The notes under the pieces: model-generated
What the model was told of the DNA's origin: nothing
What the model saw: the letters and a program-made list of their open reading frames with translations, nothing else
Databases searched by the model: none
Assembly (NCBI RefSeq): GCF_037042905.1
Contig: NC_087245.1
Coordinates: 6,450,001 to 6,514,000 of the forward strand
Length of the DNA stretch: 64,000 nucleotides
Direction of reading: 5' to 3'
Origin: Lytechinus pictus
Lineage: Eukaryota
Position numbers and translations under genes: made by a program
In this document: piece after piece, positions 6,659 to 63,758 of the stretch
Layout of the letters: each line of letters begins with the position of its first letter
How positions within the stretch are numbered: the stretch's first letter is position 1

Positions 6659-6670
6659 ATGAATCGAGAC
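6659..6670 (+). CDS. Candidate first coding exon (MNRD)
   Basis: ATG AAT CGA GAC followed by strong donor GTGAGT; phase 0 matches the acceptor at 12246, which has no Met of its own at its start; CpG-rich sequence upstream. Very short, so inferred. Confidence 0.5.
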
Positions 6671-9600
6671 GTGAGTATATTTTGTTTGATGAGGTTTGAA
6701 GGTTCGTACGGTGGTATGAACAATCGCGGAAGTGGCTTATGGTTACGGTACACCGACCATGGGACAGTCCTGGAAGGACCGAGATAAAAGTGGATAGAAA
6801 TATGGAAAGGCGAAAAAGTGGAGGTTTGGGAGTAGAGTATTATTTTGTAAATGAGTGCAGTCCTAAAAAAGACTGTAAACCAGAAGGAGTGGAAGGCTGA
6901 ATATTAGGCAGGTTGGGAGGCATGGGGAGGCATGATGGCTTGAGTTGTAGTATTGGAGCTGCATGTATACTGCATTCGCCGACTCAAACCAGCCTTTTCT
7001 CATCTACATGTCATACTATTTACAAAAATATGTAAACGATGCCATACATAACATGAGATGTTTCCTTGAACAATATACATGTATAGACTACCGTTAAAAA
7101 ATACACACAGTCTGACCTTTGCAACGTTTCTCAATTTTCAAACGATTACGAATCAATCTTTTGAATAAACAAAGTATATACCCAACTTATGAAATATGCA
7201 ACTCCCGGCTTTCTGTTCGAATAAAAAAAAGAATTGTATATATAATAAGAAAATTTAAAATTCTATATCTTTTTAAAGTCGTTTCATTTTATCAAAGTAC
7301 CAACATTAATATCGAGCTTAATTTTTACAACTTGATATACAGTACAGTGCTACTCATTCCCCCCAAAAATAATTGTTTTCTTACACGTTACAAATAACAT
7401 TGTCCTGTATGTCACCGTCGTGTGAACATAAAAAGGATTGTCTCTCAACTTCTTAACTGGGCGTTGTGGCGTGCGCCTGTAATCCAAGCTATGCGTGGAA
7501 GTTACAAATTGATGCAGAGGTTCGAGGTTCGAGCCCTGGTCACGTCTTTCGGATGGTGACGTTAAAGGTCGGTCCCAGACGTAAATAATCATATCTGATT
7601 GATACACGTCTGACAAAACTCAAATACACACACACACACTTCCACAAAGTGTATCAATGAGGTAAAACATTATGTAATATTATGACTTGTAATTAAAATG
7701 TGTTCTATTTTCTTTGACAGCCTGTTAATGATATAACCATAGTATTACAGATTTCCAATTAATCTCTTCTTACAAAATTTCTTCCCATCTTTCTTCGGCT
7801 TGAGACACATATATTATTTGCGATAAGGATGCAAAATAACTTTGACCTTCTTTTCTTATTTACATTCATCAAAATAAACGGCAAAATATCTATATTTTTT
7901 ATTGCATAATTTTATAATACAAACTCAATTTTTTTTTCAGTCATTTGATTTGGCATTCATTTCAATATTGTACTCCAGAAAAATGGTAGCATATTTTTTT
8001 TTCCAGATATGTATTCTATTTCTTTAAATGATTTAATTTTTTAATATGAAATTATGTCTCGTACGTTCAAAATTCCAGTATCGAACCATCTTTTAAACAA
8101 CATATTTCCATTCCGGTCTTTGAATAGCCACAATATTTCCTTCTTAATCTGAATGGTCTGAAAACCTGTTTTCTTTTTAATAGTTTCTTTGAAATTCAAC
8201 CATGCTTAAATAATCGCCTTATAATACTGTCGCATTTTATTTTTATCAATATATAACTTTATTTTACAGTAACTGTGTAGCACTCAAATTCTCCAAACTG
8301 AGAAAGGAAACTATCAGTAAATTTCGATTCTATGTTATTATGCTAATACAAAATCCATTTCAATTAAAAGCCTTGGGGTAACATTCAAATCCACCATTTT
8401 AAGTCCACCAAAACTGATTTTTTTTTTTGCAAAAAAAACTAATTTTCTATGTACCTAATCTGTTTTTCCACTTCATAAAAATGAATACAGTAATGCAGTT
8501 AAAAACCTTACATTTTCTGGCATTGTAATCATTCAGCATGCTACAAATTTGAGAGATGAGAAATGTTTTGGTTATGATTATTTTTCCTGTTAAGTTGGGC
8601 GACGTGCATCGCATGTTTTTATTATTAGACGTTCTACTTTCAATATTTTTGAACTACACTTCAGATCCGAAAGATTCAGTTCATTCCCCCAAAAAACTTA
8701 ACATTTGAATAAGTCCAAGGAATATATTTTACATTTTTTCACCAACTGAACCATCTTTTAATATTTTGGATCATTTTGTTTTATTCAAATACAATCCTGA
8801 AAAAGAGCTATACTTTTCTTCTTGGTAAATAATTTGTGTAAAGCAAGAGTATCGTTAACAAATATTGTTGCATCGTCTGACCAATTCAAAATTTTATTGA
8901 TTTCAACTGTATAAAAAAATTTTAATTCCTGTAATTTCTGGATAATTTCTTATCTTCATAGCTAATACTTCTGCAGCAAGGAAAAATAGCAATACGGAAA
9001 GGGGGCACCCTTGGCGCCTACCTCTCGATATACGGGTCGTGTGGTCCAGTGGTTAGAGTATTGGACTCACAATCACAAGGTTGTGAGTTCGAATCCCCAC
9101 TCTGCCATTGTCTCCACTTTGATAAAAAGGCCCGAAAGTAATATCTGTCGTCTGTAAGGTCAGCCATTATGACTGATTAACGTAGACGTAAAAATGTTTC
9201 CTAGGTAATTTGTTATATACCAGCTTGGCGTTTACCAGCAAAATGCTGTCCTGTCGAGTTCCTACAGGAGTTACCATAAACAGATACTAATCTTTTCTGT
9301 TAGCCATCTGTTTATGTTGACGTAACTCTTAACATTATTTTAAAAAATGTGACCCAACTACACAAATTATCTTTAAATCGATGACTTTGCAAACATTCAA
9401 ATAAAAAAAATCTTGACTTAGGCTATCAAAAGTCTATTCTAAAATCAGTCAGTAATGTATTCCCTCATTAAGCATGATATTTAAAGTAATAAAATATAAC
9501 CTCGATCAATCTGACATTTTCAGATATACTTCCTCTTTATATACCTGGTTATCTGAGATTAATGTAGGTATTTCCTTTTGTAACCTTTGGGCTATAACTG

Positions 9601-12600
9601 AAGCTGTTATAATCGTAGTTTAGGAGACAGATAGGTCTCCAATTATCCAATCCAGATTTGTCACCTTTTTGTACAATAATTTTATTACAGCTTGTTTTGA
9701 GAGTTTGATAATTCGTAACACATTCAAAACTCTCATTTAAAGCAGATAAAAGTGGAACTAATAATTTCTGTCCAAAAGGTTTGATAAAATTCGACTTTAA
9801 AACCATAATTCCCCGGTGGTTTATTTTTATCAAAATCGAAAACAACCTTTTTACATCTGGTTAAGATAAAATTCCTTCAGCAGTTCACACAAATCTGCAA
9901 GATCGTTAGATAATTTTGGGAGAAAGTGTTGCTGATTTGTTATCCTTACGTAATAACAAAATGGAATTATCATCAATATTTCTCTTCTCTAATGACGTGA
10001 ACTATCTTGAACACTTTTTTTACCTTCCTCAAACTAATTTACTCTTGACCTTACAATTAAACCCATGCATTATTGTTTATATCATTTATCTTCCAATGGC
10101 TCAGTAGTCTTTTCATAATCTTTTACCATGTCTATATTTTTTCCTCCATTTTTTTAGTTCCACATTTACTCGTTCAGCTTGAACAGTTTTTCTTCTAAGA
10201 CACTTTCATCATTTTCATTTTTTTTCTTATGCTTTGCATATCTAATAATTTTGCATATTTCTGACGTTTGACGCCAGGAAATTGATAGTTCTTTTTTTTT
10301 CTTGGACTAGGCCATTTATATATTTTCTTACCTTACCACAGTAATCATCGTTTGTCAATAAATTTGTATTCAATTTCCAAACGCCCGGACCTTTATCATG
10401 TTTATTCGTCCCATCAGTTTTGATTGTAATGGTGACGGTGATATGGTCACCGCTGGCTACTGGTCTTAAATCTGTGTGTTTTTTTATCCTTTTAATTCTT
10501 TAATTGAATGTGTCCATCCTTGAATAACCAAATGTGAATTTACATTCTTTGGACAGAGCTTTTGTTTCTGTGTATTGTAAACATCTTTGAAAAATATCTC
10601 TGTTCAAATAAATGTTTGGTGCGTATGATATAACTGATATAAACAACTACGTATTTGAATCGACTGTATTTCACATTCTACAATAAGCAACCTTCCAGCA
10701 CAATCTTTATATTTTGCTAGATATTTTTTATTTTAGTCTGCCTTGCTTAAAGGTGAAGTCCACCCCAGAAAAATATTGATTTGAATCAAAATATAGAAAT
10801 CAAACAAGCATATAACACTGAAAATTTCATTTAAATCGGATGTATAATAAGAAAGTTATGACGTTTTAAAAATTCACCTATTTTTTACAAAACAGTACGA
10901 TATATGCACAACTCAGTGATATGTAAATGAGAGAGTTGATGATGTCCATCACTCACTATTTCTTTTGTTTTTATTGTTTAAATTATGCAATATTTCAATC
11001 GTTACAGATTTGGGAATAATGACCAATAACTTGACTGAACCACAAATGTCAAAGCAGTGGAAATTCCACATATTCCATGTATTCAGGGATGAATAAATCT
11101 TTGTTTCACATTACAATGAGGAAGAAAATTTAAGTTAATGTGGTGTATTTCATAATGACTGGAGTACCAGGGCCGGGGATCGAACCCCGGACTTTCATGC
11201 GTCCCGTCAGGCGCCTGAGACCACTCGGCCACGGTACAGATGGATAAGCAGATATCGAATCGAGTTATCGGTTACACTCTTTAAAGGTCAAGTCCTCCCC
11301 CAAAAAATGTTGATTTGAATAAAAAAAGAAAAATCTAACTAGCATAACGGTGAAAATTTCATCAAAAATCGGATGTAAAATAAGAAAGTTATGACACTTT
11401 AAAGTTTCGCTTATTTTTCACAAAACAGTTATTATGTACAACTCAGTGACATGCAAATGAGACAGTCAATGATGTCCCTCCCTCCCTCACTATTTTTTTT
11501 TTTATTGTTTGAATTATTTTTTTCCATTTCTTTACATGACAATTGGATCAACTTGACTGAACCATATAGTATTAAAACAATGTTAATTCCACTGTTCAGG
11601 AAGGAATTAATCTTTGTTTTCACGTAACAATGAGGAAAAAATAGAATATTCCATATCTAATATAATGACATACAAAAGAAAAAGTGAACGGATGACGTCA
11701 TCGGTCTCCTCATTTGCATACCGACCAGGATGTGCATATAACTGTTTTGTGAAATTAAGCGAAACTTTAAAATGTCATAACTTTCTTATTTTACATCCGA
11801 TTTTGATAAAATTTTCAGTGTTATGCTTGTTGGATTTTTCTACTTTTATTCAAATCAACTTGTTGTTGGGGTGGTCTTGTCCATTAACTAATGAACTGTG
11901 AATGTTAAAGTACATGTAAGAATTGTTGGGAAATCTATGTCCTATTCATTTGTCGCTACATCGAACCATTGGATGCTGAGTCAAAAAGGGACCCCTATAT
12001 TGTTCGTTGGTTACAAGAAGTTTCAGAACATGGTTGTGTGGACAATCTTTAGCATATAAAAGTATGGTTTGATTTAAGTTATCTGTTCTAATTTTTCTTT
12101 CATTGCGTCTTATAAATTATTTTGCCTTTGACGTAAATCAAAGACCATCTAGACATTGTTTTTCGTAATTCGTGAATATATACCTCTTAAAACATTGAAA
12201 TATGCTTTAAAATATGTAATTCATACGATCATTTCACGTTCACAGAGAATATCCTATTACTATGACCAAGAAAGTTCTGGAAATCCAGTCTTCACAGTTC
12301 AAAATGATGTCAACCGTCATAGCACCAGGCACAACCAGCACTCATCAAGACCGAATCATGACCGGGAAGAACCAACATATCACGCCAATTGGAAGTTTAA
12401 TAGAAATTCTTCTGAATCTGATCGACGACATTCAGAATTGAGATTAAACGCAAACATAAGCAAATTTAATTCTTCTCATGAAACTAATTTCAGAGAGAAT
12501 TCATCTAAGAGACGCGGTCAGATGACACCTTCAAATCCAACCGATTTTAAGCAACACTCGATGAAACAAGCACTCCACAATCAAAACTATTTCCCGGAGA

Positions 12601-24600: not shown

Positions 24601-27600
24601 ATCAGCACCAAGTCTTATTACGATTAAGACAAGGATTATTCTTTTATTCACAATGCAAGAGTCTAAACAGTATTCAACACCATACTGGTTTTGATTCATA
24701 ATGGTGCCCCAGGTGTATTATTCTAAACCCAGATTCGTATTCAGAAGTCCAGTTTAACTTAGACCATGGTACTAGTTTAACCATTTGATGAAATTATGAG
24801 AAGCAAAATTGTCACATTTTTGTTTATATTGTATATTTCTTATGTTATCAGCGTAGTCTTGTTTTACTCCGGGTGATGTCTGATCACCAACGACTTTATC
24901 AGTATACACCCTCAAGTGTACGTGATAAATTGATACCACAAATCGACAAAATAACACTATTAACACCATAGTGTGTTTGCAATCGTTTTCACCGCCCTAT
25001 TGGTAATTTCAATACATATCGGTGTATAATATATAGTCCTCTATACTGACACTGGGCGGTGTTAGACCGAACACCAGTCTATTTATATAAAGTTTTGGTC
25101 AGAATTTGGGATTATAGAATAGTGCTTTCATCATTATCATTGTTATCGTTATCAATATCATAATCACTATGACCATTGTTATTTTCATTATATTTGTTAT
25201 TGTTATTATGATGGCAATTAATCCTATGATTATTATTTCATAATCATTATCGTTATGACTATAATAGTTATGATTATCAGTAGCAACAGTTGAATTAGGA
25301 AATGCAAATGTCAGTAAGAATGAAACATTGCCTGGTCATAATTAACGTTGATATGGTTTTATTCCAGCCCAAACTTTACTTCCAGTCACTCCAAGGCCAG
25401 TAATGGTTGTCATTGGTAAGCATATATATCCATTTTTATACTTTGGAAAAAAAGGAGGCAATACCGATTCACAAACGAAGATTTTCTTATAGTTACCAAG
25501 TTCACAATCTCCCATATACATCTTGGTTATTTTTAAAACAATCTGAAACCACTGTTTAAATTTCTAAGCTCATCACTCTAACAATTGAGTTTTCATAATA
25601 TTTTTTAACAACAGTAAAAAGATTTAACAACTTTTTTAAAATTAGATTATAAACTATATTTGTTTGAGTGACGGGCTTAAACAGGGGTTTTACATCGTAC
25701 ACATTTTCATTCCATTCAGCCAATACCCTGTATATGCTTCTGGTTATCAAGTTATAGACTTATTTAGAGAGATCAGCCGAGCACGTATGGATTTAATGAT
25801 CTTTATTTACATTTACGATACAGTAAGTATGGAAATGGGAATCAAAGGAGGATATGTCATCTGAATGGTGATACTCTTCGAAAGAGAGAGAAAGAGGGGG
25901 GGGGGGGAGTGGAGAGACAAATAAGTGGGTATACGTTTTAAGGCTTGAATTTCGTCAAAAACATACTTAAGGGCTAGTATTTACTTCATTCCAATAATGC
26001 CTTTTCTCTTTTCACAGTTGGAGTCGAATTGGGTGCAACAGTGAGCTTATCGAATCGAGCTTTCATACCTGCCTACAACAATGACTTATCACCTCAATAC
26101 CAAGAGCTTTCTCTCAACTTCACAAACACGGTCAGTTATAATTATAGTTTTCAATGCAGTTTTATTAACTATTTTTACTGTCAACCATTGAGCGTTTCCA
26201 TATACATGATTGTGTAATAGCATGCTTTTTTGTGCATATAAATATGGAAGGGTGGTGTCGAATATTCATTTTCGCCTGTTCATAATTCAGTTACCATTCA
26301 ACAATATAGGGTTAATTCAGCCATTTTGACCATGTGTGTTCAATTATTTCAAAGTAAAAAAAAAAGAAGAAAAAAAGAGAGGAGCCCACATAAATCACGC
26401 AAAATTTGCACGAGATATTGTTCTTTCAGTTGTAATCATGAAGTGCTGGATAACTAAATTATGACAACATGTGCTATAAAATTGGAATAAAATGAGAACC
26501 AATAAATTATTATATTGGAATATCTTATTTCACCATAGCACACCAGCTGCCACATCCGAACTGAATGATATACGTTGCACGAAAATTTGCATGCATCTGT
26601 CCCGCTCTGTGACGTCAGATATCTTGTCTGGCATAATCTCCTAATAACAGCGAGTAAACTTAAAAAATCTATAAACATTCAATACGAATTGAGGAGTGAC
26701 AACTTGAACATATTGGCTTCTTGAAGATTGCATTCTTCCAATTATTGTTTTATTAGTTCACTATTATTGTATCCACCTAGATAAAAGTTGATTCGTATGG
26801 ACATCGTTGGCAGGTTCTTCGACTCACAATTTGAAAACGTCTTCACCCTTTATATATCTTAATCATTATCAATTTATATAGTGCAACTTAAGCTGTTGAC
26901 AAAAATGATTTCTCATTCTTGAACAAATAATATTTTCAGATGGATGCGGTGTTTTACAACAGCGATCTGAGGGAAATTTACAACGGTTCAACTGTCAATG
27001 GATTCAGGTAAAACTAAAATCAAACTTAAACATGATGTTTATATCGAAAGGGTTATGTCAGTATTTTTTCATCGTTGAAGTTATTAATATTTGAGTGGGA
27101 ATGTATAACTAGAATTGCTATTCCTATTTTACAAAGAAGCATTAATTAGGGGGAGTTGATTTGGCCAAGTTCCCTCGAAGTGTTTCAAATGAGGTTCGTG
27201 AAGAAATATGTGTGTGACTGAGGGCGTGTGTGTGTGTGGGATGGTAGGAGTGTGTGTGTGAGAGAGAAAGAAAGAGAGAGAGAGAGAGAGCCGGGTTTAT
27301 TTTTTTTTTTTGGGGGGGGGGGGGGTATTGGTGTGTGTAAGAAGGTGAGAATGGCACTCTTTGATTTTAATAAAAAAATATCAGATGCGGGCACTCTTTG
27401 TTAACTAGATATTTTTTTTATCTTTACGATTAAATCCTCGTCTTTTTGACGAGAATTTGTTTGTACATCTTTTAATAGCAATTCTTAAGTTCCTTTGTTC
27501 TTATCAAGTGGATTGTTTTAAAATGAATTAACGCTGGATATATCGTTTTGACAACAATTGAGAATAAAAGATGAATAGAAATAAAAACGAATGTTGATTT

Positions 27601-28507
27601 TACAGTCCTGGGAGTGTCATTGTTAACTTTACCATCAACCTAATACAAGCACCGACAGCGCCGACACGGGACCCGTCATTGACCGGTTCGACAGCACAAC
27701 CACCAGGCGATGGGGGCATCGATGACCAGATCAGTGCAGTTAGAGGGCAAGTTGAAGTGTCCATCAAGGAAGTCATTCAGCTTGCCGAAAACAATGGAGA
27801 ACTCACAACTCTTGGTGTCGATTCGACCACGCTTGCCGTTACGGAAGGTAAGATGATCGGTTTACCATTGGGCTGAGTGTGTTGCAAGTTTGTGGAAAAA
27901 GAAAGAAAAAAAAAACACCACAAAGAAGAGGTAAAGGGGAAGAAGCTTGAAAGAAGAGTAAATAGATAAAGATAGTAAATAATAAAGAGTAATTAGTAAT
28001 AGTAAAGAGTAACTCTATAATGCCATATAGGCCTATTATTCACAATTGTGAACAAAAAATACGTATACCTTATTTCATCTTGCCTTCTTGGCGCCGCCCT
28101 CGTTTGTGCATAACACATGTACAGGCTCCATAATAATTTACGTCTTATTTCGTGTCACCTCGGTTGGCTGCGTGCTTGTACCTAATGTCCCACCCCAAAT
28201 AAAAATGAAGCGCATTTACAAATGTCATCTTTTTTACGGTTTTTTACATTTCTGGTGATAGACTAGATAAAAAAGTAAATTCTTGAATCAAGTCAAGGAA
28301 AGGAATATATAGATCAAAATTACTTTAACGGTACCTCCTATACTATATATTCGATCGATTACGTAATGTTGATCACCTGAAAAGAGAATAACAAGAAAGG
28401 CGAGAGGAGTGTGGAGAACTGCATGCATGGCAGGGAAGGGTGAGGAGAGGGATAATAATAATAATAATGATAATAATAGCCTAATAATAATAATGATAAT
28501 AATAATA

Positions 28508-28538
<31 letters not shown>

Positions 28539-31500
28539 TAATAATAATAGGCATTTATATAGCGCCATCTATCTAGAAGTATTCTATTCCGATCGAGGCA
28601 CGTTGCTTTTATTATTATTACCCCGGTTTTAGCTCGAGCTGCCTTTCAGCGCTCATGCATTCAAGGAATTAATCCTGCCGGGTACCCATCACCATTCACC
28701 TCACCTGGGTTGAGTGCCCGGGGGTCACTCTCGGCATGCATGGACTGCTACCCACCCGTGTCCGACAACCTCAGAAAACGGCATAACTACATAAACTAAA
28801 TTTGCAACCGGAAACGGCGTAACCCATGAGAAAAGCCACCCTATAAGTGGCGTGAACAGGGAAATTAAATCCCCTAATTTGATACCATAAGTGGCGTAAA
28901 CATAAACTCTATGGTGGAGAGTGACCCACCGGGGTTGAGTGCAGCACAATGTGGATAAATTTCTTGCTGAAGAAAATTACGGGATAATAATAATGACATT
29001 AATGATAATTGATAATAATGATAATGATGATGAGTAATAATGATAATAATAATGATAATAATAATAAGAAGAAGAAGATAAAGTAGGAGAAGGAGGAAGA
29101 GGATAGGAATATTAAAAGAAGTTAAATGATTACTTCCATATATTAAGTTGTAGTGAAAATCATTATTATTATTATTTCACAGTATCTGTAGATGTGGAAA
29201 CTCAAACTGTCTCCGAAGCTCCTACAACAACGGTTACTCCTTCTACCCCATCTCCAGGTTTGTATCTTATCATTAGTTCATTTTCCGTCGATCAGCAACT
29301 CTTTGTGCATTATAATAAAAAAATCATTATGCGTTTAGACTGAGCAGGAATAACCACAAGAGATATTTTCCCTCCCTCTCTCTACTCAATTCCCGGGACT
29401 CAATTACCTAAAAAAAATACTGTGCTTTTGAATGTCAACAATTACAAAAAACACCCCCAACATATGTCAAGCCAAGTAAAGCAGAAGAGAAGAAATTGAA
29501 CAATCATAATCTCTTCAACATCAACAAACAAAACACATTCATTGATTTTCTTAAGACACCAATCCTCCGCTCACACATTCCGTCGATCGGAATCGCGATA
29601 CCGGTGAAGCTGAAGCACCTACCTTGACCTACTTCACATTTTCATCAATGATCATTTTATAGTTTACGATTTTGCCGTCAATGCATGTGGTAACTATTTC
29701 TTGAATTGGTTTTGTATAAATTGTGAATATTTTGTGAACAAATTTAAGTCTGATATATATTTTTGAAAAGTCCGCGAAGTTTGGACACCCCATCATACAC
29801 CGGATCATACATTTCGGGGCACGCCGGCCAGGAATGGATTGTGCCTGGGATTGGTGGAGTGTAGCTCTCACTTAGTTTTATAGTGAATGATAAGGAGCCT
29901 GTGCCCGGCGGCCCGGGGCTAGTACAGTGCATAGTGCTCTGGAGACGTGGCTGGTGGTGAGAACGTTGCTGACGGTGATGCTGGTGGTGATGATGCTGGC
30001 CAATTTTAGACTTGGACTTGGTGATCTAGTTGAGTTGATGATATGATGATGATCGATGGCTAAATTGTAGATGATATTAACCATTTGTCTGTTGATTTGA
30101 GCGCGCACACTATACTTACAAGTTACAAATTGGAGCCTTTATAGTACTATTAATTACTAGCTTGTTCATGGCTTGTTGGAGCTAGGACTAAGTTAGGTGC
30201 CTGTGTACATTGTAACCTAGTCCATTGGAAAGGGCTGAAAAAACCATTTAAAATGGTATATTAACCATTACTCTAAGAGAGTTAAGAGAGTTATGATTTT
30301 TTAATATTAAAAATCTTGATTTAATTATTGCCATTGGCATTTATCTTACCATTGCGACCATTCAAAATGTGTGACCAACCGTGACCCAAAAATTTTTTTT
30401 TTACAAAATTATACAAATTATTCATTTAAATCTATAAAACTGAGTAATAATAGGTGATGAGAAAGGATATCAATATTTGTCTTAATTGATCAATGTATTA
30501 GATATTTAATTAGTAATTATCAATTAGTAAATTGATATGTTAATTGTTCATAAACTCAATACGGAACACATACAAACTTATCTTATTTCCTTATTGTTTG
30601 AAATTTTTTGACAAGAACTTCTGCAACAGCACATCTTCTAAATAAAACTTTCAGAATGATAAAACATTGAATACTTACAGAAAGATCTCAGTATTGCAGT
30701 ATTTGATAAATGTGTTGATTAATTATCAGTTAGCAATTTAATTAGTTATCTATTCAAATCTCACTGCTGCAAAAAAAAAAAATTCTTGATGTGGTATATT
30801 TTGATGGAAATTTCTGCTAAGGAAACATGGAATATAATGGATATGTGATCTATGAATATAAGGAATGGAAGTATTAAAGAAACATTCAACAATTTCATAT
30901 ACATCAATTACATACATGTATGACAACTATTATTGTTTGGCATCCATTGAATTTGTACCTAAATCTGTACCTCACTAGCTTACCTTGCTATGATTATGAT
31001 ATACTAGTAGTTAAATCCTCATTTATTGAACAAAATTTTGATGTCAGTTTCTACTATATCATATGAGCCAAATCAGACTTCCATGCGTCCCATCTTCAAA
31101 ATTTGACATCGAGGCGAAAGGGATTTTTTTCAGCTACGTCATCAGTGAAAATAAGCCAAATTGGTGAGAAACCGCCAAATCTACACCCATTTAAAGCGGG
31201 GACATCCCGATAGACCGCGGGTCCGATAGACCGCGGGTCCGTTAGACCGCGGGTCCGATAGACCGCGGGTCCGATAGACCGCGGGTCCGATAGTCCGCGG
31301 GTCCGATAGACCGCGGGTCCGATAGTCCGCAGTGTGTGTAAAATTATGATCAGATATATCAAATGTCATCGAGAGGTCCAAAGGTCAAATGATACGAGGC
31401 CATGGGGTTCTATCAGGTGCGGATCCATGGAGGGCCGAGGGGGAACTGCCTCATCCCCCCCCCCCACCCCCAGCTCAAAAAAAAGAGGGGGGAAGAGGGG

Positions 31501-55500: not shown

Positions 55501-58500
55501 AGTTATTATTATTATCATTATTATTATTATTATGATCACACATTATGTGTTAGTTCTGTACTTTCGAAAGTCATGGGTAATCACAGTTGGAGGTTTTTTT
55601 TAAGAGGGGTGCATTTGATACTTTCAAAGCCTGAAAAAATCCTCAGGTTAATTTATGAGTCTAGTTCCTTGTAATTTTACAGACCATCAAGCTGTACTTA
55701 CATACATTTATGTATATTCTATTCTAGCAATGGAAGCATTCTTGCAAACTTCACAGTCAACCTAGGTAGTTTGATAGAGAGTAATGATACTGATCCTGTT
55801 AAGTCTACCGCTGGATTAATAAGTAATTCAATCAACAAGGGAATTGAGGGTGGTTCATTTGGAGATTTGCCTGTTGTTTCTGGATCTTCTTCTATCCCAG
55901 CAGGTATGTTTTTCTCCACTATTGTAATAATGGCATAATGGTCTAACCATACTTTCCTATTATACAAATAGCGAATAGGCATGAGTGCGATGGTGCGAGA
56001 TTTTGAGTAAGGTTATACAAAGATGCTCTATTCAACGAGGGGGAGCCAAGTTGAATAGAGTTTCTGTCTCTTTTACTGAGTGTGAAATGTCGCACCATGG
56101 CACTAATAAGAATATTTGCCCTTTAATTGTGTTGAACAATGCCTCGGAAGTTAGCAAAAATACAAACGACGGTAATGTTAATCCATGAAAATAAGGAAAA
56201 CATTTGAAAAGCGATAAGTAGATTCCCTCAAATGTGAATCTGATTGGCAGCAGCTAAAGGGTATGTGCATTTCGCCAGTAAGCCCTACACGTATTGCACC
56301 TGCGTACAGTGCACTGAAGCATAATTTTTGTCTCGCCCACCAGAGGTGGAGGCGAGACTTGGGGATCCAAATGTCGTCCGTCACAAACCTGTAATGACAC
56401 ATAACTCCACAACCGTAAGTCACTTTTCAACCAAACTTAGATGGCAGATGGACTTGGGGGACCTGCATGTTATGCTGCAGTTTGAGGTCACATGGTAAGG
56501 TCAAAGGTCATTTTCAGGTCTACGTTGAAGTTTACATGCAAGACTCTCTTATGACACCTAACTCCACAACCGTAAGTCGCTTTTCAACCAAACTTGGATG
56601 GTAGATGGAATTGGGAGACCCGCATGTTATGCTGCAGTCTGAGGTCACATGGTAAGGTCAAAGGTCATTTTCAGGTCAACGTTGAAGTTTACATGCAAGA
56701 CTCTTATGACACCTAACTCCACAACCGTAAGTCGCTTTTCAACCAACCTTGGATGGCAGAAGGACTTGGGGGACCTGCATGTTATGCTGCAGTCTGAGAT
56801 CACATGGTAAGGTCAAAGGTCATTTTCAGGTCAACGTTAAAGTTTACATGCACGTCTCTCTTATGACACCTAACTCCCCAAGTATGTCGCTTTTCAACCA
56901 AAATTGGATGGTAGATGGACTTGGGGGACCTGCATGTTATGCTGCAGTTTGAGGTCACATGGTAAGGTCAAAGGTCATTTTCAGGTCTACGTTGAAGTTT
57001 ACATGCAAGACTCTCTTATGACACCTAACTCCACAACCGTAAGTCGCTTTTCAACCAAACTTGGATGGTAGATGGAATTGGGGGACCTGCATGTTATGCT
57101 GCAGTCTGAGGTCACATGGTAAGGTCGAAGGTCATTTTCAGGTCAACGTTAAAGTTTACATGCAAGACTCTCTTATGACACCTAACTCCGCATCCGTACG
57201 TTACTTTTGAACCGAACTTGGATTGTGGATGGACTTGGGGAACCTGCATGTTAGGCTGCAATCGGAGGTCACATGATAAGGTCAAAGGTCATTTTCAGGT
57301 CAACGTTGAAGTTTACATGCAAGACTCTTATGACACCTAACTCCCCAACCGTATGTCGCTTTTCAACCAAACTTGGATGGTAGATGGACTTTGGGGACCT
57401 GCATGTTATGCTGCAGTCAGAGGTCACATGGTAAGGTCAAAGGTCATTTTCAGGTCAATGTTAAAGTTTACATGCAAGACACTTATGACACCTAACTCCG
57501 CAACCGTAAATCACTTTTCAACCAAACTTGGATGTTAGATAGGCTTGGGGGACGTGCATGTTATGCTGCAGTCTGAGGTCACATGGTAAGGTCAAAGGTC
57601 ATTTCAGGTCAACGTTAAAGTTTACATGCACGTCTCTCTTATGACACCTAGCTCCGCAACTGTAAGTCACTTTTCAACAAAACTTGGATGGTAGATGTAC
57701 TTAGGCGACCTGCATGTTATGCTGCAGTCGGAGGTCACATGGTAAGGTCAAAGGTCATTTTCAGGTCAAACATTAAAGTTTACGTGCAAGGCTCTTATGA
57801 CAAGTGTTATTCCATCCCAGTCATTTCCCAATGAAGTTTCAATATAATTCTCTTGCGTGCCCTCGCAAATCACGATATTTCTGGTTATTTTCATAAGTGG
57901 GCGAGACACAAAATTGCTTTGCCTTGTTATGAAAAAACGTTGCATAATGGATGGTAAATGTGCAACGGTACAAATGTTTTGACATTTAGCCTCCCATTTG
58001 CTTGCTTGCAAGAAGCTAAGTAGGTGTTGTAAAATAGGGCATGTACACTATAACTGCATTTCTTTTTATTTCATGTTTAGTCTTTGCAATAGAATTGTAG
58101 CTGTCATAAATTGGCAAGATATTATTTTGGGTTTTTTTATCTTGACTTGTGTCCCACAGGTAGAATTTACCACACAATGGGAATATTTTACCTGAAAATG
58201 ATGATTGAGATGTTTCAAACAATACAGTACATGCTTCTTGATATTATTTTGCAGACACTGAGCCTCCAATTATCCGTAACTGTCCCGACCCGCTTCCTTA
58301 TTCAACTGATTTGGGCCAATATTCTGGTACTGCTATCTGGACAGTACCTATGGCTACTGATAACTTTGGGATCATTGACTCTATAGTTTCAAATTACAAG
58401 CCAGGAGATTCATTCCCTGTTGGTAGTACCTTGGTAACCTACACCTTTACAGATGCCTCAAGAAATAATGCTTCCTGTATTTTCAATGTCACAGTGAAAG

Positions 58501-61500
58501 GTGAGTGGCATTAATGGATTAAGTGGTATTTATGAATTTTAGTTGCATGAAAAATGTGAAGACAAAGATTTGGTGATGTGTGGTTTGAAGTTGTGAAACA
58601 CATATGCACATAGGGAACCAACACATTTAAATTTGGATAAATGAATTATTATGCGTACTATTGTATAGGTATTTTGTGCATATAAATCTAGAAAGGTACT
58701 AGCCACCTGGAAAAAAAGTACACTACATAACATTACCAAGTAAGCTTGATAGTAGCTGCATTGAATATTATTCAAGTTAGCCGTAAATATCTGCTTTAGT
58801 TAATGATAAAAACCATTTTCTTGGCAAGAGACTTGTTGCTTTTGCACCTAGGCTTTTACTTTGTTATTTGAAAAAAAAATAGTTATATCCATTTTGTATC
58901 ACTCTTTACATTTGAACTAGTAGATATACATGTATTATAACTCATCATAGAGGAACAAGGAACAATTAGGCTTCTGTTTCTATCAATATGATCGTCTTCA
59001 CTTTCTGCTGCATCTTGTTATGACCGGGTATCACAGAACTGAGTGACCTACAAGAATTTGTGATTTACATCCAGTAAAGATAGGTGCTGGAGACATGATG
59101 ACTTGATTATTTTCCAAATGAACTTCAAATTCACAATGCATCCATCTGAGAAGTGATGGTTATCTGACTTGACATTGGGAAGTGAATGTTGATTTTCATA
59201 TGTCATATACTTTTTTTTTCACAATTTTGACAATGAAATACTGGTACATATATCCTACAGATACCGAGGCTCCTGTTGTTAGTAATTGCCCAAGTTCGCT
59301 CACCTTCCAAGCTGACAATGGGCAGTCAATGGGAACTGCTATATGGTTATTGCCTACAGCATCAGATAACTCTGGTTTGAATGTTACAATGACATCAGAT
59401 TATGATTCAGAAGATTCCTTCCCTATTGGCAGTACAACAGTGACCATATCATTTGAAGATAGTTCAGGAAACACTGCTTATTGTAGTTTCAATATAACAG
59501 TTATTGGTGAGTACAGTAGAATAGACACTGATGTAGATCATGTATTCATTGGTGTTGAAAGGCAGTGCCTTATACATGTACCATAAAAGACTTAGTTTTA
59601 CAACTAAATGCAATTACATCTTATAGTATCATGGCATCTTGTTATTGTAAATAGTCTTCTCCTGTCACTTGATTTCCATGAACATAATGAAGTTTAATAA
59701 GATTTGAGGAATGCAATGTATTGCTTAATGTTACACTGCTTTAATGAGACAAGAAAAGGCAGATACCAATTTTGAGGCATGATGAATTTCTATAGGTGCA
59801 GTAGTTGGTATTGAGAGATCAGAAAGAGCCAACACGCTCTTTCAGATTTTAATACCGCCTATTAGAAATAACCCAGTTGTTTCTTATGCATTCCATCTTT
59901 CTACATCTGCGTTTAAGGCAAATTTCTTTGTCTTTTTTTCAATATTAGCAATGCGCCTTAACACCCTCAACATGTACCTTTGACTTAACATCTAAATGTG
60001 TATTATGACTAAATAAACCCATTCATAGACTTTGCCCTTTTGTAGGATGTATGCACATATATATATATATATTATATATATTTGTTAATAGGTAATGCAT
60101 CATTTACTGTTGATGGATCATTGACGATTGCTGGTATGTTCTCATCTGACCTGAATGACCCTACTACGGTACTCTACCAGAACACAGCTGGTGGTCTTGT
60201 TAAAGGAGTAAGTTGAAGAAGAAGACTAATTACCTACCATTGTGTATTAATAAGATATGTTTTATTCTTCTTTTATCTATCTAGTTTCTGTAAATGCAAA
60301 GAAATGTGATGCTACCTATGTGTTTAATATTTGCTTCTACAGAAATGAAAATACTGTTGTAGTTTTTGCATAAAATCCAGGAGAGAACATAAGTTTCTTT
60401 CACTCCCATGTAAAACTTCTGCAAAAATGATGAGGTACATGTACTATGATACCACAGTAGGCATGATAAGTTGGAAGAAGGATTTTAATGTTACAAATAA
60501 AACATGTGTGATATGTAAAAGATAAATGATATTTTAAAATCTGGATTTGCCTTTTATACGCCTGTCCTAGACGGGATGTATTATTATATGCCCGTCCTAG
60601 ATGGGATGTATTATGGTATAACGCTTGGTGTATGTCCGTCTGTCTGTCCGTTAACTTTTTCTTGTATTTTTGTAAATGCAATATCAATTTAACTTGACCT
60701 AGGCTCATATAATTTGGTGTGTATGATACTCGCATGGATCCCAGGAAGCCTATTGATTTTGAGGTCAAAGGTCAAGGTCACAGTGACATTTCATCCTACC
60801 CTTCTGAAGTCCTTGTTAGCACAATAACTTCAAGTTTAACTTAACCTAGGCTCATATAATTTGGTGCGTATGATACTAGAGTGGGTACCAGCATGGACAT
60901 ATTACAACTGGACATTCAACGAATCCCCTCCTTTGGGCCAAAGACCGTCACCGCTAATCCTTTTATAAACACAGTGCTGGCAGCTGACGCCCATCAAGCC
61001 AGTCGTACAACACGCTGTCACTAATGGACAGTGGAAATCAATTGTGCGCTGCTCCTACACATTGCGATGTTCTTCGTTCACTTTATCCAAAGCAGCACAC
61101 AGCAGCGAACGTTAGCGCTCTGATAATGATCACAGAAACAAGAAAACAGGTGTGCATAAACATATTTTTTACGTACATCGCTAACAACCGCTCACAAAAT
61201 GCATTGACATCACCGTGCAAATCAGTATATCTACAGCAAAAAAGCAGTTAGAATTCGATGGAGAAATGTGTAAAAAAGACGTTAAAAATGCATCTGTTTC
61301 GGACAGTACTGATGTCGATAGTCACGCTTACCTTCGATCAGAAGTTGATTTTCATTTGGCCGTAAAATTCCAGAGGATTGGCGAAATTTAATAGAAATTT
61401 TTTCTGATGATCGGTCTACAATTGCACAATATTGACAGCTTGAAATAATGTATTGAAAACCGGAAATAAATTGCGCATTGCATTATAGGTAATGCAGGGA

Positions 61501-63758
61501 CTTTCCCTGATCGCAGGCAATCGAGCTATATGACCGCATCTGGTCGAAAGAGGGCCAGAGATCGAGCGGTAACTGTCATGGTCCAAGAAGGGATTGAGTA
61601 AACAATTGCCCCGGGCGCTTGTCGTAAAAAAAGCGCAAAGAGAAAGTTAACTGTGTGACAGCAATTTTGATAGCTGGAAACAGGTGGTAGCCATAAAATG
61701 CTCTTGTTGAATGTCCATTTGTAATAGGTCCATGGTACCAGGAAGCCTATCAATTTTGAGGTCAAAAGGTCAAGGTCACAGTGACATGTTTTCATCTCAC
61801 CCTTCTTAAAACCTTGTAAACATGAAAGCTTCAATTTGACTTAACCTACATGTAGGCTCATATACACTGTGTACATGTATGATACTAGCATGGATCCCAG
61901 GAATTCTATTTATTTGAGGTCAGAAGGTAAAAGGTCAAGTCACCATCTTCCACTTTTCTTGCTTGAACAATAACTCCATTTTCCGTGTTACTGGCGGGCA
62001 TATTATGTGCTCGCCTTAGCAACACTCTAGTTTTTATGCAGGAAAAATGTGAATGATAATGCTGCTTTTGTGATGTACATGTAATTCAAATGCAAGTCTT
62101 GTTTTTAATTTCTTTTCCTTACAGTTCAATGCTATATTTGAGCCCCTAGGATCCCAGTATTTAGGGGTAATTGTGACAGGATTCATGTAAGTTCATATCA
62201 TGTTTTTAATAGAAAAAAGCAATTTTAGAGAATGCTCGTTAAATGATTGATTTTTTTCATTGAAAACTTAAAAAAAATCAGAAAATGTGGACTTTGGTTG
62301 AAAACATATCTTATATTAATATTGTGCTCTTGTTATTTTTAAAGTGCATTTGAGAGTTATGTTTTTTTAACAGGCTCATATAATTTGGTGTGTATGATAC
62401 TAGCATGGATCCCATGAAGCCTATTGATTTTGAGGTCAAAATTTAAGGTCATAGTGACCGTGCTTTCATCTTACCCTTCTGAAGTTCTTGTAAATGAGAT
62501 AACTTCAGTTTAACTTAAACTAGGCTCCTATAGTTTGATGTGTATAATACTAGCATGGATCCAAGAAATTCTATAGATTTTGAGGTCTAAAGGTCCAAGG
62601 TCAAGTCGTCACCTTCCACTTTTCCACATTACTGGCTGGCATATTATGTGCTTGCCCCAGTGACACTCTTGTTTGATTATATTTTGCATGAGCATTAGGA
62701 CTCGATCTTGCATAATTTGTACTGCTCCTTTTAATGCGGATACATCTTAGTGAATTTTGTGATAATTTTGACAAAGTAATCAAGGAATTATTAGACATTG
62801 ATGTTACTATTATTTGAAGGAATCAACTATATGGGAGTATTATGGGGTTTAAGTATATCACAATTGACAATATCACTTAATGAGAGATTATGTGGAGCGT
62901 TGTGGCCCAGTGGATTAGTCTTCGGACTTTGAAACAGAGGGTTGTGGGTTCGAATCCTAGCCATGGCGTAATTTCCTTCAGCAAGAAACTGATCCACAAT
63001 GTGCTGCACTCAACCCAGGTGAGGTAAATGGGTACCGGTAGGAAGTAATTCCTTAAAAAGCTGTGTGCGCTATGAACGCCTAGCTTAGCCGGGTAATATA
63101 GGAGCGCCTTGAGCACCTAACAAGGTGGATATGTGCGCAATATAAATACCCTATATTATTGCTCTTATTATTCTCATCTCATTTTATCAAAAATGTAACA
63201 GCATGACATATTTACAAAGTCTCAAATGAAAATTTCCAAATTTTTTCTTGATATGTTCAACTAAAAAAGTAAAATATTGGTGAAATGGAAATGATTGTAC
63301 ATTGTTCCTATGTCAGATATGTCAATCATGAAGAGGATAGTTGTGAGATTTAGATGCCTCCACCTACAGTATGTGCTTGCTCAAGCAGATGTTTTTGTGA
63401 AATATATTCTTATTTAGTTCCCCATCCTATTACAAGTAATTTGTAGGTCAGATTAATATAGCAGTGTTGGTAGCATACATTGTAACTGTGCAGTTGAGAA
63501 GAAGAATATTCTTTAAAATCGCTATGAAACAATATGATTAATTCAAGTACAATTTGTTAACCTTGTTTTTTTTCATTTCCAGGAATGGAAGCATTGATGC
63601 AGGATTTTCAGTAATCCTGGATAGTTTGATAGAGCATAATGGCAGCAATCCTTTGGTTGCCACAAGAGAATCAATCAAGAATTCTATCAATAATGGAATA
63701 GGAAATGGGGCATTTGGAGATTTGCCAGTTGTTCCAGGATCTTTATCTGTTTATCAAG
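6659..63758 (+). CDS. Multi-exon gene (26 coding exons in window, 3' end beyond window): type II transmembrane SEA- and HYR(hyalin-repeat)-domain protein
   Basis: All exons have AG/GT boundaries, are stop-free and join with matching phases (4663 nt). RSRK followed by a ~29-aa hydrophobic segment; three SEA domains with F-x-x-G-S-[VI] motif; 12 HYR domains (D.E.P...CP...W..P.A.DNSG...G...VT..A.D.SGN...C.F.V.V). Confidence 0.9.
7456..7639 (+). mobile_element. SINE-like insertion with 7SL (Alu-domain)-like head, B box, Deu/Nin-like segment and (CA)n tail
   Basis: ACTGGGCGTTGTGGCGTGCGCCTGTAATCCAAGCTA head; GGTTCGAGCCC; GTCTTTCGGATGGTGACGTTAAA; (CA)n; interrupts the LINE reading frame. Confidence 0.7.
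9034..9283 (+). mobile_element. tRNA-derived SINE inserted in the LINE RT region
   Basis: A box TGGTCCAGTGG, B box GTTCGAATCC; ATAC on both sides; removing it rejoins the LINE frame (EKISISRG.RQGCP). Confidence 0.8.
10751..11130. mobile_element. TTAA MITE family K1, truncated copy
   Basis: TTAA|AGGTGAAGTCCACCCC; colinear with 11285 copy. Confidence 0.75.
11160..11238 (-). pseudogene. tRNA-like sequence (tRNA pseudogene or SINE head) ending in CCA
   Basis: Minus strand TGTACCGTGGCCGAGTGG...CCGGGGTTCGATCCCCGG...GGTACTCCA; A and B boxes and T-arm intact; anticodon stem does not pair. Confidence 0.6.
11285..11883. mobile_element. TTAA MITE family K1, full-length copy (Kolobok-like)
   Basis: TTAA on both sides; long imperfect TIRs (~190 bp). 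Confidence 0.85.
12246..12729 (+). CDS. Exon 2: cytoplasmic N-terminal tail and signal-anchor TM helix
   Basis: ttcacAG acceptor, G|GTGAGT donor; lies inside ORF 12156-12884; [33 protein letters not shown]. Confidence 0.85.
14326..14446. mobile_element. Short hAT-like MITE remnant
   Basis: 14-bp TIR CAGGGGCCGCGGAA / TTCCGCGGCCCCTG; no clear TSD. Confidence 0.55.
14911..17655. mobile_element. 2.7-kb non-autonomous TTAA element (Kolobok-like) carrying an internal ~220-240-bp tandem array
   Basis: TTAA|GGACGTTCCACAGTTA ... TAACTGTAGAACGTCC|TTAA; motif GATGAAAATGACATGGA recurs near 15820, 16040, 16268, 16506, 16740, 16975, 17201. Confidence 0.88.
18619..19181. mobile_element. TIR element with poly-G/poly-C ends
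   Basis: (G)nCACTTCCATTGACGAGTGGATACCATGTGCGACCA vs TGGTCGCGCATGGTATCCACTCGCCAATGTAAGTGG(C)n. Confidence 0.8.
19527..22374. mobile_element. PIF/Harbinger-like non-autonomous element, outer copy
   Basis: TIR AGCCCCAGTCACATATAGAC; TSD TAA (19524-26 / 22375-77); internal 21-bp minisatellite ACACGGACCAACACGTCAGC(A/T). Confidence 0.9.
20575..22036. mobile_element. Second copy of the same Harbinger-like element, inserted inverted inside the first
   Basis: Same TIRs; TSD TTA (20572-74 / 22037-39); sequence is the reverse complement of the reconstructed outer copy. Confidence 0.9.
22864..23444. mobile_element. TTAA-flanked MITE family K2 with ~200-bp TIRs
   Basis: TTAA|TGGGATGGTCCAGGCTGAAA ... TTTTCAGCCCGGACCATCCCT|TTAA. 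Confidence 0.85.
23539..23574 (+). CDS. Micro-exon 3 ([12 protein letters not shown]), Ser/Thr stalk
   Basis: ttccataaAG acceptor, AG|GTAATG donor, 36 nt, phase 1-1. Confidence 0.55.
23671..24623. mobile_element. piggyBac-like MITE family PB, diverged copy with internal duplication
   Basis: TTAA flanks; shares core (GCATGCACTTAC...GTACCCGGG...GAGACTTGAAA) with 37017, 40848 and 50884 copies. Confidence 0.75.
25368..25415 (+). CDS. Micro-exon 4 ([16 protein letters not shown])
   Basis: ttttattccAG acceptor, G|GTAAGC donor, 48 nt, phase 1-1. Confidence 0.65.
26018..26130 (+). CDS. SEA domain 1, exon a
   Basis: [38 protein letters not shown]; polypyrimidine-cAG acceptor, GTCAGT donor; phase 1-0. 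Confidence 0.85.
26940..27007 (+). CDS. SEA domain 1, exon b
   Basis: [22 protein letters not shown](S); phase 0-2. Confidence 0.85.
27606..27847 (+). CDS. SEA domain 1, exon c (contains G^SVIV cleavage motif)
   Basis: (S)[27 protein letters not shown]...[12 protein letters not shown]; phase 2-1; donor GTAAGA. Confidence 0.85.
28530..28981 (-). mobile_element. tRNA-SINE family S, 5'-truncated, interrupted by a TIR element
   Basis: Reverse complement of the 62894 SINE core; (TAA)n tail at 28450-28550. Confidence 0.75.
28717..28933. mobile_element. Short CCCGG-terminated TIR element with 8-9-bp TSD
   Basis: GTTGAGTG(C)|CCGGGGGTCACTCTC ... GAGAGTGACCCACCGGG|GTTGAGTGC. Confidence 0.85.
29183..29257 (+). 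CDS. Thr/Pro/Ser-rich linker exon
   Basis: [25 protein letters not shown]; tttcacAG acceptor, AG|GTTTGT donor; phase 1-1. Confidence 0.75.
31414..35071. mobile_element. hAT-like composite element inserted into the left TIR of the foldback element
   Basis: CAGGTGCGGATCCA / TGGATCCGCGCCTG termini; 8-bp TSD GGTTCTAT; internal GCTCGCGCTTCGCGCTCGC motifs. Confidence 0.85.
31477..32185 (+). repeat. ~700-bp polypurine (G/A) low-complexity tract
   Basis: Almost only A and G on the + strand. Confidence 0.95.
35297..35616. mobile_element. hAT-like MITE
   Basis: CATTGGCGGCGGAAG / CTTCCGCCGCCTAAG termini; 8-bp TSD TAATTAAT. Confidence 0.85.
37017..37772. mobile_element. piggyBac-like MITE family PB, full copy
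   Basis: TTAA|CCCTAATTCTCC ... GGAGAGTTAGGG|TTAA. Confidence 0.9.
38035..38182 (+). mobile_element. tRNA-SINE family S, 3' fragment
   Basis: GGTGAGGTGAATGGGTACCCGGCAGGATTAATTCC core and (ATT)n tail. Confidence 0.7.
38823..39059 (+). CDS. HYR domain 1 exon
   Basis: [12 protein letters not shown]...[14 protein letters not shown]; 237 nt, phase 1-1. Confidence 0.92.
39584..39823 (+). CDS. HYR domain 2 exon
   Basis: [12 protein letters not shown]...[10 protein letters not shown]; 240 nt, phase 1-1. Confidence 0.92.
40044..40283 (+). CDS. HYR domain 3 exon (missed by the ORF track)
   Basis: [37 protein letters not shown]...[14 protein letters not shown]; 240 nt, phase 1-1. Confidence 0.92.
40335..40627 (-). 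mobile_element. tRNA-SINE family S, near full-length
   Basis: Reverse complement of the 62894 copy including the tRNA-like head. Confidence 0.8.
40848..42485. mobile_element. piggyBac-like MITE family PB (inverted relative to 37017), interrupted
   Basis: TTAA|CCCTAAATCTCCC ... GGGAGAATTAGGG|TTAA. Confidence 0.9.
41434..42298. mobile_element. TTAA-targeting (Kolobok-like) element nested in the PB MITE
   Basis: TTAA|AGACCCTGACCGG ... CCGGTCTGGATCT|TTAA; internal inverted repeat containing TGACGTCA. Confidence 0.85.
42634..42870 (+). CDS. HYR domain 4 exon
   Basis: [12 protein letters not shown]...[14 protein letters not shown]; 237 nt, phase 1-1. Confidence 0.92.
43125..44240 (+). mobile_element. 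Helentron-associated (HINE/DINE-1/Tsp-like) element family A
   Basis: SubTIR GTCTCACCTGC / GCAGGTGAGAC, (CGG)n microsatellite, ~5 core repeats of ~150-200 bp, CTTGTT end, T-rich target. Confidence 0.8.
44651..44887 (+). CDS. HYR domain 5 exon
   Basis: [12 protein letters not shown]...[14 protein letters not shown]; 237 nt, phase 1-1. Confidence 0.92.
45010..45798 (+). mobile_element. HINE-like family A, decayed copy with insertion
   Basis: Core repeats and 3' end (GTCAGCACTGCTGCTAT...GGCGAGACTG...CTTGTT) match 43125-44240. Confidence 0.7.
46891..47115 (+). CDS. HYR domain 6 exon
   Basis: [12 protein letters not shown]...[14 protein letters not shown]; 225 nt, phase 1-1. Confidence 0.9.
47487..47723 (+). 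CDS. HYR domain 7 exon
   Basis: [12 protein letters not shown]...[14 protein letters not shown]; 237 nt, phase 1-1. Confidence 0.92.
48216..48461 (+). CDS. HYR domain 8 exon
   Basis: [13 protein letters not shown]...[23 protein letters not shown]...CTFDIAVN; 246 nt, phase 1-1. Confidence 0.92.
49033..49275 (+). CDS. HYR domain 9 exon
   Basis: [13 protein letters not shown]...[10 protein letters not shown]; 243 nt, phase 1-1. Confidence 0.92.
49864..50582. mobile_element. Tc1/mariner-like MITE
   Basis: TA|TAGTGCGTATCCAAAAAAAGTTTA ... TAAAATTTTTATTGATACACACTG; degenerate CAGTG-type TIR. Confidence 0.6.
50884..51613. mobile_element. piggyBac-like MITE family PB, diverged copy
   Basis: TTAA|CCCT start; core matches the 37017 copy. 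Confidence 0.8.
51809..52051 (+). CDS. HYR domain 10 exon
   Basis: [13 protein letters not shown]...[14 protein letters not shown]; 243 nt, phase 1-1. Confidence 0.92.
52469..52584 (+). CDS. SEA domain 2, exon a
   Basis: [39 protein letters not shown]; 116 nt, phase 1-0. Confidence 0.88.
53087..53148 (+). CDS. SEA domain 2, exon b
   Basis: [20 protein letters not shown](S); 62 nt, phase 0-2. Confidence 0.88.
53230..53682 (+). mobile_element. HINE-like family C
   Basis: GTCC/GTCT microsatellite, two core repeats, 3' GTGCTCGCCTTAGCGACAC hairpin then TTGTT. Confidence 0.75.
53961..55360 (+). mobile_element. HINE-like family A copy with an unrelated insertion (~54720-55260)
   Basis: 5' and 3' ends match 43125-44240; the insertion carries a hairpin GCAGGTCTATTTCACC...GGTGAAATAAACCTGC. 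Confidence 0.75.
55728..55903 (+). CDS. SEA domain 2, exon c
   Basis: [18 protein letters not shown]...[15 protein letters not shown]; 176 nt, phase 2-1. Confidence 0.88.
56328..57928 (+). mobile_element. HINE-like family B with nine ~156-bp tandem core repeats
   Basis: SubTIR GTCTCGCCCAC / GTGGGCGAGAC; array 56394-57797; CTTGTT end. Confidence 0.85.
58255..58500 (+). CDS. HYR domain 11 exon
   Basis: [13 protein letters not shown]...[12 protein letters not shown]; 246 nt, phase 1-1. Confidence 0.92.
59261..59506 (+). CDS. HYR domain 12 exon
   Basis: [13 protein letters not shown]...[14 protein letters not shown]; 246 nt, phase 1-1. Confidence 0.92.
60092..60207 (+). CDS. SEA domain 3, exon a
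   Basis: [39 protein letters not shown]; 116 nt, paralogous to 52469-52584. Confidence 0.88.
60555..62031 (+). mobile_element. HINE-like family C, interrupted by a P-like element
   Basis: Matches 53230-53682 on both sides of the insertion. Confidence 0.8.
60892..61734. mobile_element. Non-autonomous P-superfamily-like element
   Basis: 29-bp TIR CATGGAC(A/C)TATTACAA(C/A)TGGACATTCAAC; 7-bp TSD GTACCAG. Confidence 0.8.
62125..62186 (+). CDS. SEA domain 3, exon b
   Basis: [20 protein letters not shown](M); 62 nt, paralogous to 53087-53148. Confidence 0.88.
62370..62672 (+). mobile_element. HINE-like family C, 5'-truncated
   Basis: Core and 3' end match 53230-53682. Confidence 0.75.
62894..63160 (+). 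mobile_element. tRNA-derived SINE family S, full length
   Basis: A box TGGCCCAGTGG, B box GGTTCGAATCC, central GCACTCAACCCAGGTG...AAATGGGTACC, LINE-like 3' end with (TAT)n. Confidence 0.85.
63583..63758 (+). CDS. SEA domain 3, exon c
   Basis: [17 protein letters not shown]...[15 protein letters not shown]; 176 nt, paralogous to 55728-55903; ends at a phase-1 donor, so the gene continues. Confidence 0.88.

Follow-up and report, generated by a model that had tools for sequence, protein, structure and literature searches.

A Lytechinus pictus gene with HYR and SEA arrays most likely encodes a transmembrane serine protease on a long HYR stalk

We analysed a 64,000-nucleotide stretch of the Lytechinus pictus genome (NC_087245.1, positions 6,450,001 to 6,514,000; hereafter the window), whose plus strand carries a real, spliced and conserved gene; its product, to judge from sequence comparisons, is most likely a trypsin-like protease of the cell surface, mounted on a long rod of HYR domains. 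The gene runs on past the window, beyond the donor that closes its third SEA domain at 63758; the L. pictus evidence stops at this domain, and the protease part is known from the predicted genes of two further species. This layout, a serine protease of the type II transmembrane class (TTSP) with an HYR stalk, labelled 'hyalin' in databases, appears not to have been described previously: no description of an HYR-stalked TTSP was found in the literature searched, which mostly excluded subscription journals and whose listed matches were in part judged by title, no echinoderm TTSP paper was recognizable by title among the matches listed for enteropeptidase, corin or matriptase combined with sea-urchin literature, and no mention of accession XP_011680745 was found in the literature searched.

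The TTSP stems described in the sources consulted are short sets of SEA, CUB, LDLa, Frizzled (Fz) and SRCR modules. With 10 to 18 HYR domains between anchor and enzyme, stem length becomes a testable determinant of the substrates within reach, and the gene provides a concrete sea-urchin candidate for apical-matrix or zymogen processing.

Gene model and transcripts in the window

Six-frame reading and a self-search of the window revealed, on the plus strand, 12 units resembling HYR and three resembling SEA. Splicing the exons listed in a preliminary description of this DNA, a check proposed there, gave a continuous open frame with GT-AG introns throughout: the core model of 24 exons and 1,526 codons contains no stop, and its 23 introns are all GT-AG and phase-compatible. 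The short middle exon of each SEA domain was located by splice-site scans. Adding two mini-exons leads to a full model of 26 exons (25 of 25 introns GT-AG) encoding 1,554 amino acids and still open at 63,758, in line with the roughly 1,550 residues and open frame estimated beforehand. The architecture anticipated in that description (tail, anchor, SEA, T/P linker, ten HYR, SEA, two HYR, SEA) was borne out in every item that could be checked, and its features are as follows.

6659..6670, + strand: first coding exon, MNRD (4 codons), ATG and GTGAGT donor; matches MHRD of the S. purpuratus model P0003
12246..12729, + strand: cytoplasmic tail (~135 aa), RSRK and signal-anchor helix (aa 137-165), from hydropathy; 46% identical to P0003
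23539..23574, + strand: S/T-rich mini-exon, probably optional, from splice scan; matches P0002 and P0003, absent from P0001 and the Diadema model
25368..25415, + strand: P/T mini-exon, probably optional, from splice scan; matches P0001-P0003, absent from the Diadema model
26018-26130, 26940-27007, 27606-27847, + strand: SEA1 with GSVIV motif; 78% identity to S. purpuratus SEA1, 66% to Diadema SEA1
29183..29257, + strand: T/P/S-rich linker exon, 60% S+T+P
38823-39059, 39584-39823, 40044-40283, 42634-42870, 44651-44887, + strand: HYR1-5, one phase-1 exon each (Pfam HYR)
46891-47115, 47487-47723, 48216-48461, 49033-49275, 51809-52051, + strand: HYR6-10, one phase-1 exon each (Pfam HYR)
52469-52584, 53087-53148, 55728-55903, + strand: SEA2 with GSILA motif; 71% identity to SEA2 of P0003
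58255-58500, 59261-59506, + strand: HYR11 and HYR12 (Pfam); RNA joint in runs X1, X19 and X5
60092-60207, 62125-62186, 63583-63758, + strand: SEA3, a duplicate of SEA2; RNA joints, phase-1 GT donor at its end

Topology was read from hydropathy alone. The Kyte-Doolittle maximum (3.11, at residue 137) marks the only strong hydrophobic segment, which lies just after RSRK as foreseen, and the N-terminus of the spliced product displays no hydrophobic peak, consistent with the earlier reading that a signal peptide is lacking. All 12 HYR exons pass the Pfam HYR cut-off of 21.7 bits, with scores from 38.8 to 86.3 bits. The SEA domains are each split over three exons, of which single pieces reach just E ~0.1 in Pfam (two of the nine); because these separate pieces are too weak, the SEA assignments were made through the orthologue P0003, which has a Pfam SEA match in two stretches (E 5.5e-22) and whose counterparts are 78% and 71% identical to window SEA1 and SEA2. 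Window SEA3 is in turn 59% identical to window SEA2. No CUB, LDLa, Fz or trypsin match was found within the 64-kb window (tblastn, E<=1), and its nine further long frames gave no Pfam match better than E 0.02.

Expression evidence consists of RNA reads and contigs mapped on 57850-64000; the joints linking the transmembrane (TM) exon, SEA1 and HYR1, like the first exon, are drawn from colinear orthologue models. Among the RNA junctions that the preliminary description had proposed to map, those connecting HYR11, HYR12 and SEA3 were thus recovered, within the stretch mapped. Raw reads of run X19 cross GT-AG joints between HYR11 and HYR12 (11 reads), SEA3a and SEA3b (18) and SEA3b and SEA3c (19), with mates oriented as expected for plus-strand RNA. 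A single 1,337-nt contig of run X1 spans HYR11, HYR12 and SEA3c and leaves a gap of 179 nt, which agrees with SEA3a and SEA3b together (178 nt plus one base); it extends 482 letters further upstream, where the match enters the acceptor by four bases, exactly as the end of SEA2 predicts. Read depth is zero at 63824-64000, which means that the transcript leaves the window through the donor at 63758. Run X15 contains the TM exon and has no depth on HYR11, HYR12 and SEA3a, but such holes prove nothing. In five runs, 0.58 of the words sampled from 12100-12900 are present, which is roughly the fraction of this interval taken up by the TM exon; none of these runs is on record as RNA, and this word share was not counted as expression evidence.

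Intronic tandem arrays occupy 56394-57802 (155-157-bp unit, nine copies, 90%) and 15885-17223 (235-bp unit, 5.8 copies), and a degenerate array of ~200-bp units lies at 43196-44159. One element, with 21-bp internal repeats, is present in inverted, nested copies (19524-22377), and another, with 16-bp repeats, in two opposite-facing copies (31207-31330 and 36113-36285); both are probably non-autonomous transposons. Broken frames on the minus strand at 9552-10499 have no Pfam support and contain motifs that we take to be those of LINE endonuclease/reverse-transcriptase proteins. A very abundant short repeat at ~62890-63170, also found at 40339-40621 and 28927-28981, has a tRNA-like head by eye and is probably a SINE; thousands of RNA-run reads map to its copy at ~62890-63170.

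Orthologous models and the distal protease

Using the third exon of SEA1 as query, three matches were obtained among 225 candidates, all from Strongylocentrotus purpuratus and 72-73% identical. The TM exon gave no match among 93 candidates of 283-2000 aa, a weak result since P0003 has this region at 46% identity. P0003 (XP_011680745.1, 1,893 aa) is 70% identical over 1,442 columns and colinear from MHRD through HYR11; each of HYR1-10 has the same-numbered HYR of P0003 as its best match (10 of 10, 67-86% identity). A second S. purpuratus model, P0002 (1,740 aa, 'hyalin isoform X4'), reads TM-SEA-10 HYR-CUB-LDLa-CUB-LDLa-LDLa-Fz-trypsin, with a Pfam trypsin match at E 2.3e-58. The Diadema setosum model P0004 (2,997 aa) shares the tail, anchor, SEA1, first HYRs and terminal cassette, in the order tail-TM-SEA-11 HYR-LDLa-protease-Fz-(CUB/LDLa)-SEA-CUB-LDLa-CUB-LDLa-LDLa-Fz-protease; a SEA2/3-type domain sits directly before the terminal cassette, and the model is not clean, a stretch of ~120 aa (about 980-1100) appearing mispredicted.

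TM/SEA1 and HYR domains are joined within one model in all four orthologue models, and both sea-urchin models that run to an in-frame C-terminus end in CUB/LDLa/Frizzled/trypsin. HYR and trypsin domains occur together in two proteins, P0002 and P0004, among the 120 matches listed of 389 (query: P0003 residues 130-440). Between these two, the terminal cassette is 57% identical and the protease alone 72%, the next best protease from outside S. purpuratus reaching 52-55% (152 proteins compared); SEA1 of S. purpuratus and Diadema is 71% identical, so that both ends of the protein are equally orthologous.

A tree of 50 HYR domains (81 columns) places HYR1, 2, 4, 5 and 6 in well-supported three-species clades, indicating a proximal rod that is old and fixed and a distal part that varies with lineage; HYR7-11 group L. 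pictus with S. purpuratus, and HYR3 has no clear grouping. The distal differences are a duplicated SEA in L. pictus, a series of almost identical HYRs in S. purpuratus and an extra protease module in Diadema. At the other end, the signal anchor is conserved in both orthologues. The cytoplasmic tail shows little conservation apart from two blocks that contain Tyr, close to the N-terminus; these blocks are possibly sorting signals.

The terminal proteases of P0002 and P0004 carry TAAHC, DIA[VL]L and GDSGGPL, with the His-Asp-Ser triad intact. An Asp in the S1 pocket specifies cleavage after Arg or Lys; this residue is Asp (DTC-GDSG) in both terminal proteases and Ser in the first Diadema protease. 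P0004 bears two protease domains on one type II chain, both with triad and R|IVGG. This zymogen activation motif is found in P0002 and in both P0004 proteases (orthologues only), and activation at R|IVGG with a disulfide tether has been described for TMPRSS6 (PMC2958558). GSVIV is kept in SEA1 of five of five sequences, whereas the corresponding motif is GSILA in SEA2 and GSIDA in SEA3; according to the same source, GSVIV is the cleavage motif of enteropeptidase (PMC2958558). The best PDB sequence match of P0002 is likewise enteropeptidase, over the protease domain only.

The same module set occurs in other proteins that lack HYR domains. Large unnamed proteases of the TM-SEA-CUB/LDLa/Fz type, often carrying an internal SEA and a second catalytic domain, are represented by P0129, P0130, P0138, P0146, P0151, P0199, P0200 and P0201, with protease identities of about 50% or less. 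The layout of P0138 mirrors that of the Diadema model, and P0138 and P0130 have a T/P-rich stalk where the sea-urchin proteins have HYR. HYR was found in none of the 150 top representatives for the cassette, a set that does not include P0002 and P0004, so that absence outside sea urchins is unproven. The many proteases of this kind among the representatives, all HYR-free, suggest that a mucin-like stalk gave way to the HYR rod in one lineage. Starfish have type II proteins with 16-18 HYR and other ends (P0010 and P0014, with a FAMeT-like end; P0033, with a CUB/LDLa end): in echinoderms, HYR stalks also carry distal heads of other kinds.

Proposed mode of action and rival readings

The preliminary description had left two readings side by side, a membrane-tethered hyalin-like filament and a TTSP-like protein whose HYR stem is very long, and the orthologues ending in CUB/LDLa/Frizzled/trypsin argue for the latter. 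The window provides a cytoplasmic tail followed by a single N-terminal anchor, with a SEA stem and without a signal peptide; the orthologues add CUB, LDLa and Fz to the stem and, at the C-terminus, a trypsin-like domain with an intact triad. By analogy with known TTSPs, the protein would be made as a one-chain zymogen with its N-terminus inside the cell, would cleave itself at G|S in SEA1 with the pieces staying associated, and would be activated at R|IVGG before cleaving after Arg or Lys; shedding from the membrane would be possible. A new element would be the HYR rod, which may carry the CUB/LDLa/Fz head and the enzyme outwards across the glycocalyx or the apical matrix. Ig/FN3-like domains span roughly 4 nm per module, and 12 or more HYR could thus extend over about 50 nm or more, a length that is an estimate, since the HYR alignment found just one match in the PDB, and a weak one. 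The most likely role would be zymogen activation or apical-matrix processing on an epithelial surface, as for enteropeptidase and matriptase. A bolder version, which we regard as rather unlikely, is a long-reach, sea-urchin-specific TTSP that docks in the hyaline or vitelline layer, corresponds to the strongly positively selected S. purpuratus gene Sp-Ebr1_5 (see below), a supposed paralogue of the bindin receptor, and acts as a surface protease at an interface with gametes or with pathogens; rod length would then vary between species, and perhaps isoforms, and hold the protease tens of nanometres from the membrane.

The filament reading, now the less likely rival given the orthologue C-termini, supposes that in L. 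pictus the protein, or its main isoform, ends without a protease and forms a tethered HYR/SEA filament, which would be shed at SEA1 and, within the apical matrix, would act as a mucin-like spacer or take part in adhesion. We consider it improbable. The window indeed contains no protease, but its last exon closes with a donor and is not read through. A protease is reached in only one of the three S. purpuratus HYR models (P0002), P0001 and P0003 having none; yet P0003 ends inside an HYR, which suggests truncation, and in P0001 the last HYR is spliced into the first residues of CUB1 before the model leaves frame. A further model, P0123 (647 aa), holds the cassette alone, starting inside CUB1 with no hydrophobic N-terminal segment, and as P0001 and P0123 are 97.4% and 97% identical to P0002, the two look like halves of a single gene copy that a frameshift has broken. 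Two copies, ~97% identical, seem to be present in S. purpuratus, as haplotypes or through a duplication; one is intact and the other is split at CUB1. The trypsin-free starfish proteins with type II HYR stalks (P0033, P0010, P0014) and the strong between-species difference in the distal stem also speak for a filament.

Even less probable in our view is that the database models fuse neighbours, a TM-SEA-HYR gene and a CUB-LDLa-Fz-trypsin gene whose first exons were missed. The cassette does exist as a stand-alone model, but that model, P0123, begins inside a CUB domain and lacks any hydrophobic N-terminal segment. The internal SEA of the Diadema model could begin a second TTSP, and the cassette is normally HYR-free, as in the 150 representatives above; however, an internal SEA is also present in the HYR-less relatives P0129, P0138 and P0200, L. 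pictus RNA splices an internal SEA domain to HYR exons, and the halves in question are connected alike in each of two distant sea urchins. An HYR-stalked TTSP stays the favoured reading.

Comparison with known proteases, hyalin and Sp-Ebr1_5

The stem of enteropeptidase (TMPRSS15) carries MAM and SRCR modules and, to our knowledge, no HYR or Frizzled domain. Neither MAM nor SRCR was found in P0002 (E<=0.01) or P0004 (E<=1e-4), a point in which the sea-urchin protein differs from enteropeptidase. Both share a type II anchor, CUB and LDLa modules, a trypsin-family protease and a membrane-proximal SEA with GSVIV (PMC2958558).

The matriptase subfamily (ST14, TMPRSS6, TMPRSS7) is organized as TM-SEA-CUB-CUB-LDLa-protease (PMC10376093), and the TM-SEA-CUB-LDLa-protease logic is common to both. 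The nearest ESM Atlas clusters of P0002 belong to this subfamily (score 0.83), although these are leads only, all lying below 0.9; residues 1-520 of P0003 gave no usable match there. In contrast to the subfamily, with its SEA, two tandem CUB, three to four LDLa and protease, the sea-urchin protein inserts 10-18 HYR and further SEA domains between SEA1 and the CUBs, alternates CUB and LDLa, and places a Frizzled domain before the protease, an order and content that set it apart. Corin has in common the type II anchor, Frizzled and LDLa modules and trypsin-like protease (PMC10376093). Its own set is two Fz, eight LDLa and an SRCR, with no SEA, CUB or HYR, whereas P0002 has a SEA, one Fz, three LDLa and no SRCR.

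Hyalin is secreted into the matrix and is not known to have a membrane anchor or a catalytic domain. The orthologues are named 'hyalin' by NCBI, and tandem HYR domains are indeed shared, all 12 exons passing Pfam; however, the signal anchor and SEA domains in the window and the protease in the orthologues distinguish the sea-urchin protein from hyalin. The annotation is thereby corrected, these 'hyalin' entries not being hyalin, which affects the reading of transcriptome and selection studies. The hyalin molecule itself is a filament of ~75 nm (PMC2289348).

One such selection study may concern this very gene. The egg bindin receptor EBR1 consists of TSP1 and CUB repeat arrays; no TSP1 family was found in P0001-P0004, which sets the present protein apart from EBR1. 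Sp-Ebr1_5 (SPU_006534; Kober and Pogson 2017) ranks fifth for positive selection and has a TM, a SEA and seven HYR, with NP_999830.1 as its best GenBank match (PMC5521101). Its name seems to derive from this similarity. The set of TM, SEA and HYR in a sea-urchin model is the likeness to the L. pictus gene; on the other side, its description mentions neither a protease nor a domain order (PMC5521101), and seven HYR in 1,243 aa misfit the first 1,243 aa of P0003, which contain 10. The identity is doubtful also because type I HYR-SEA-TM proteins exist: P0009 of Apostichopus japonicus, with 26-27 HYR, EGF, SEA and a C-terminal transmembrane helix, represents a second way to combine HYR and SEA. 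We therefore hold it possible, if somewhat against the balance, that Sp-Ebr1_5 and the L. pictus gene are the same. If they are, the five strongylocentrotid genes ranked highest for positive selection would include a protease in place of a bindin receptor.
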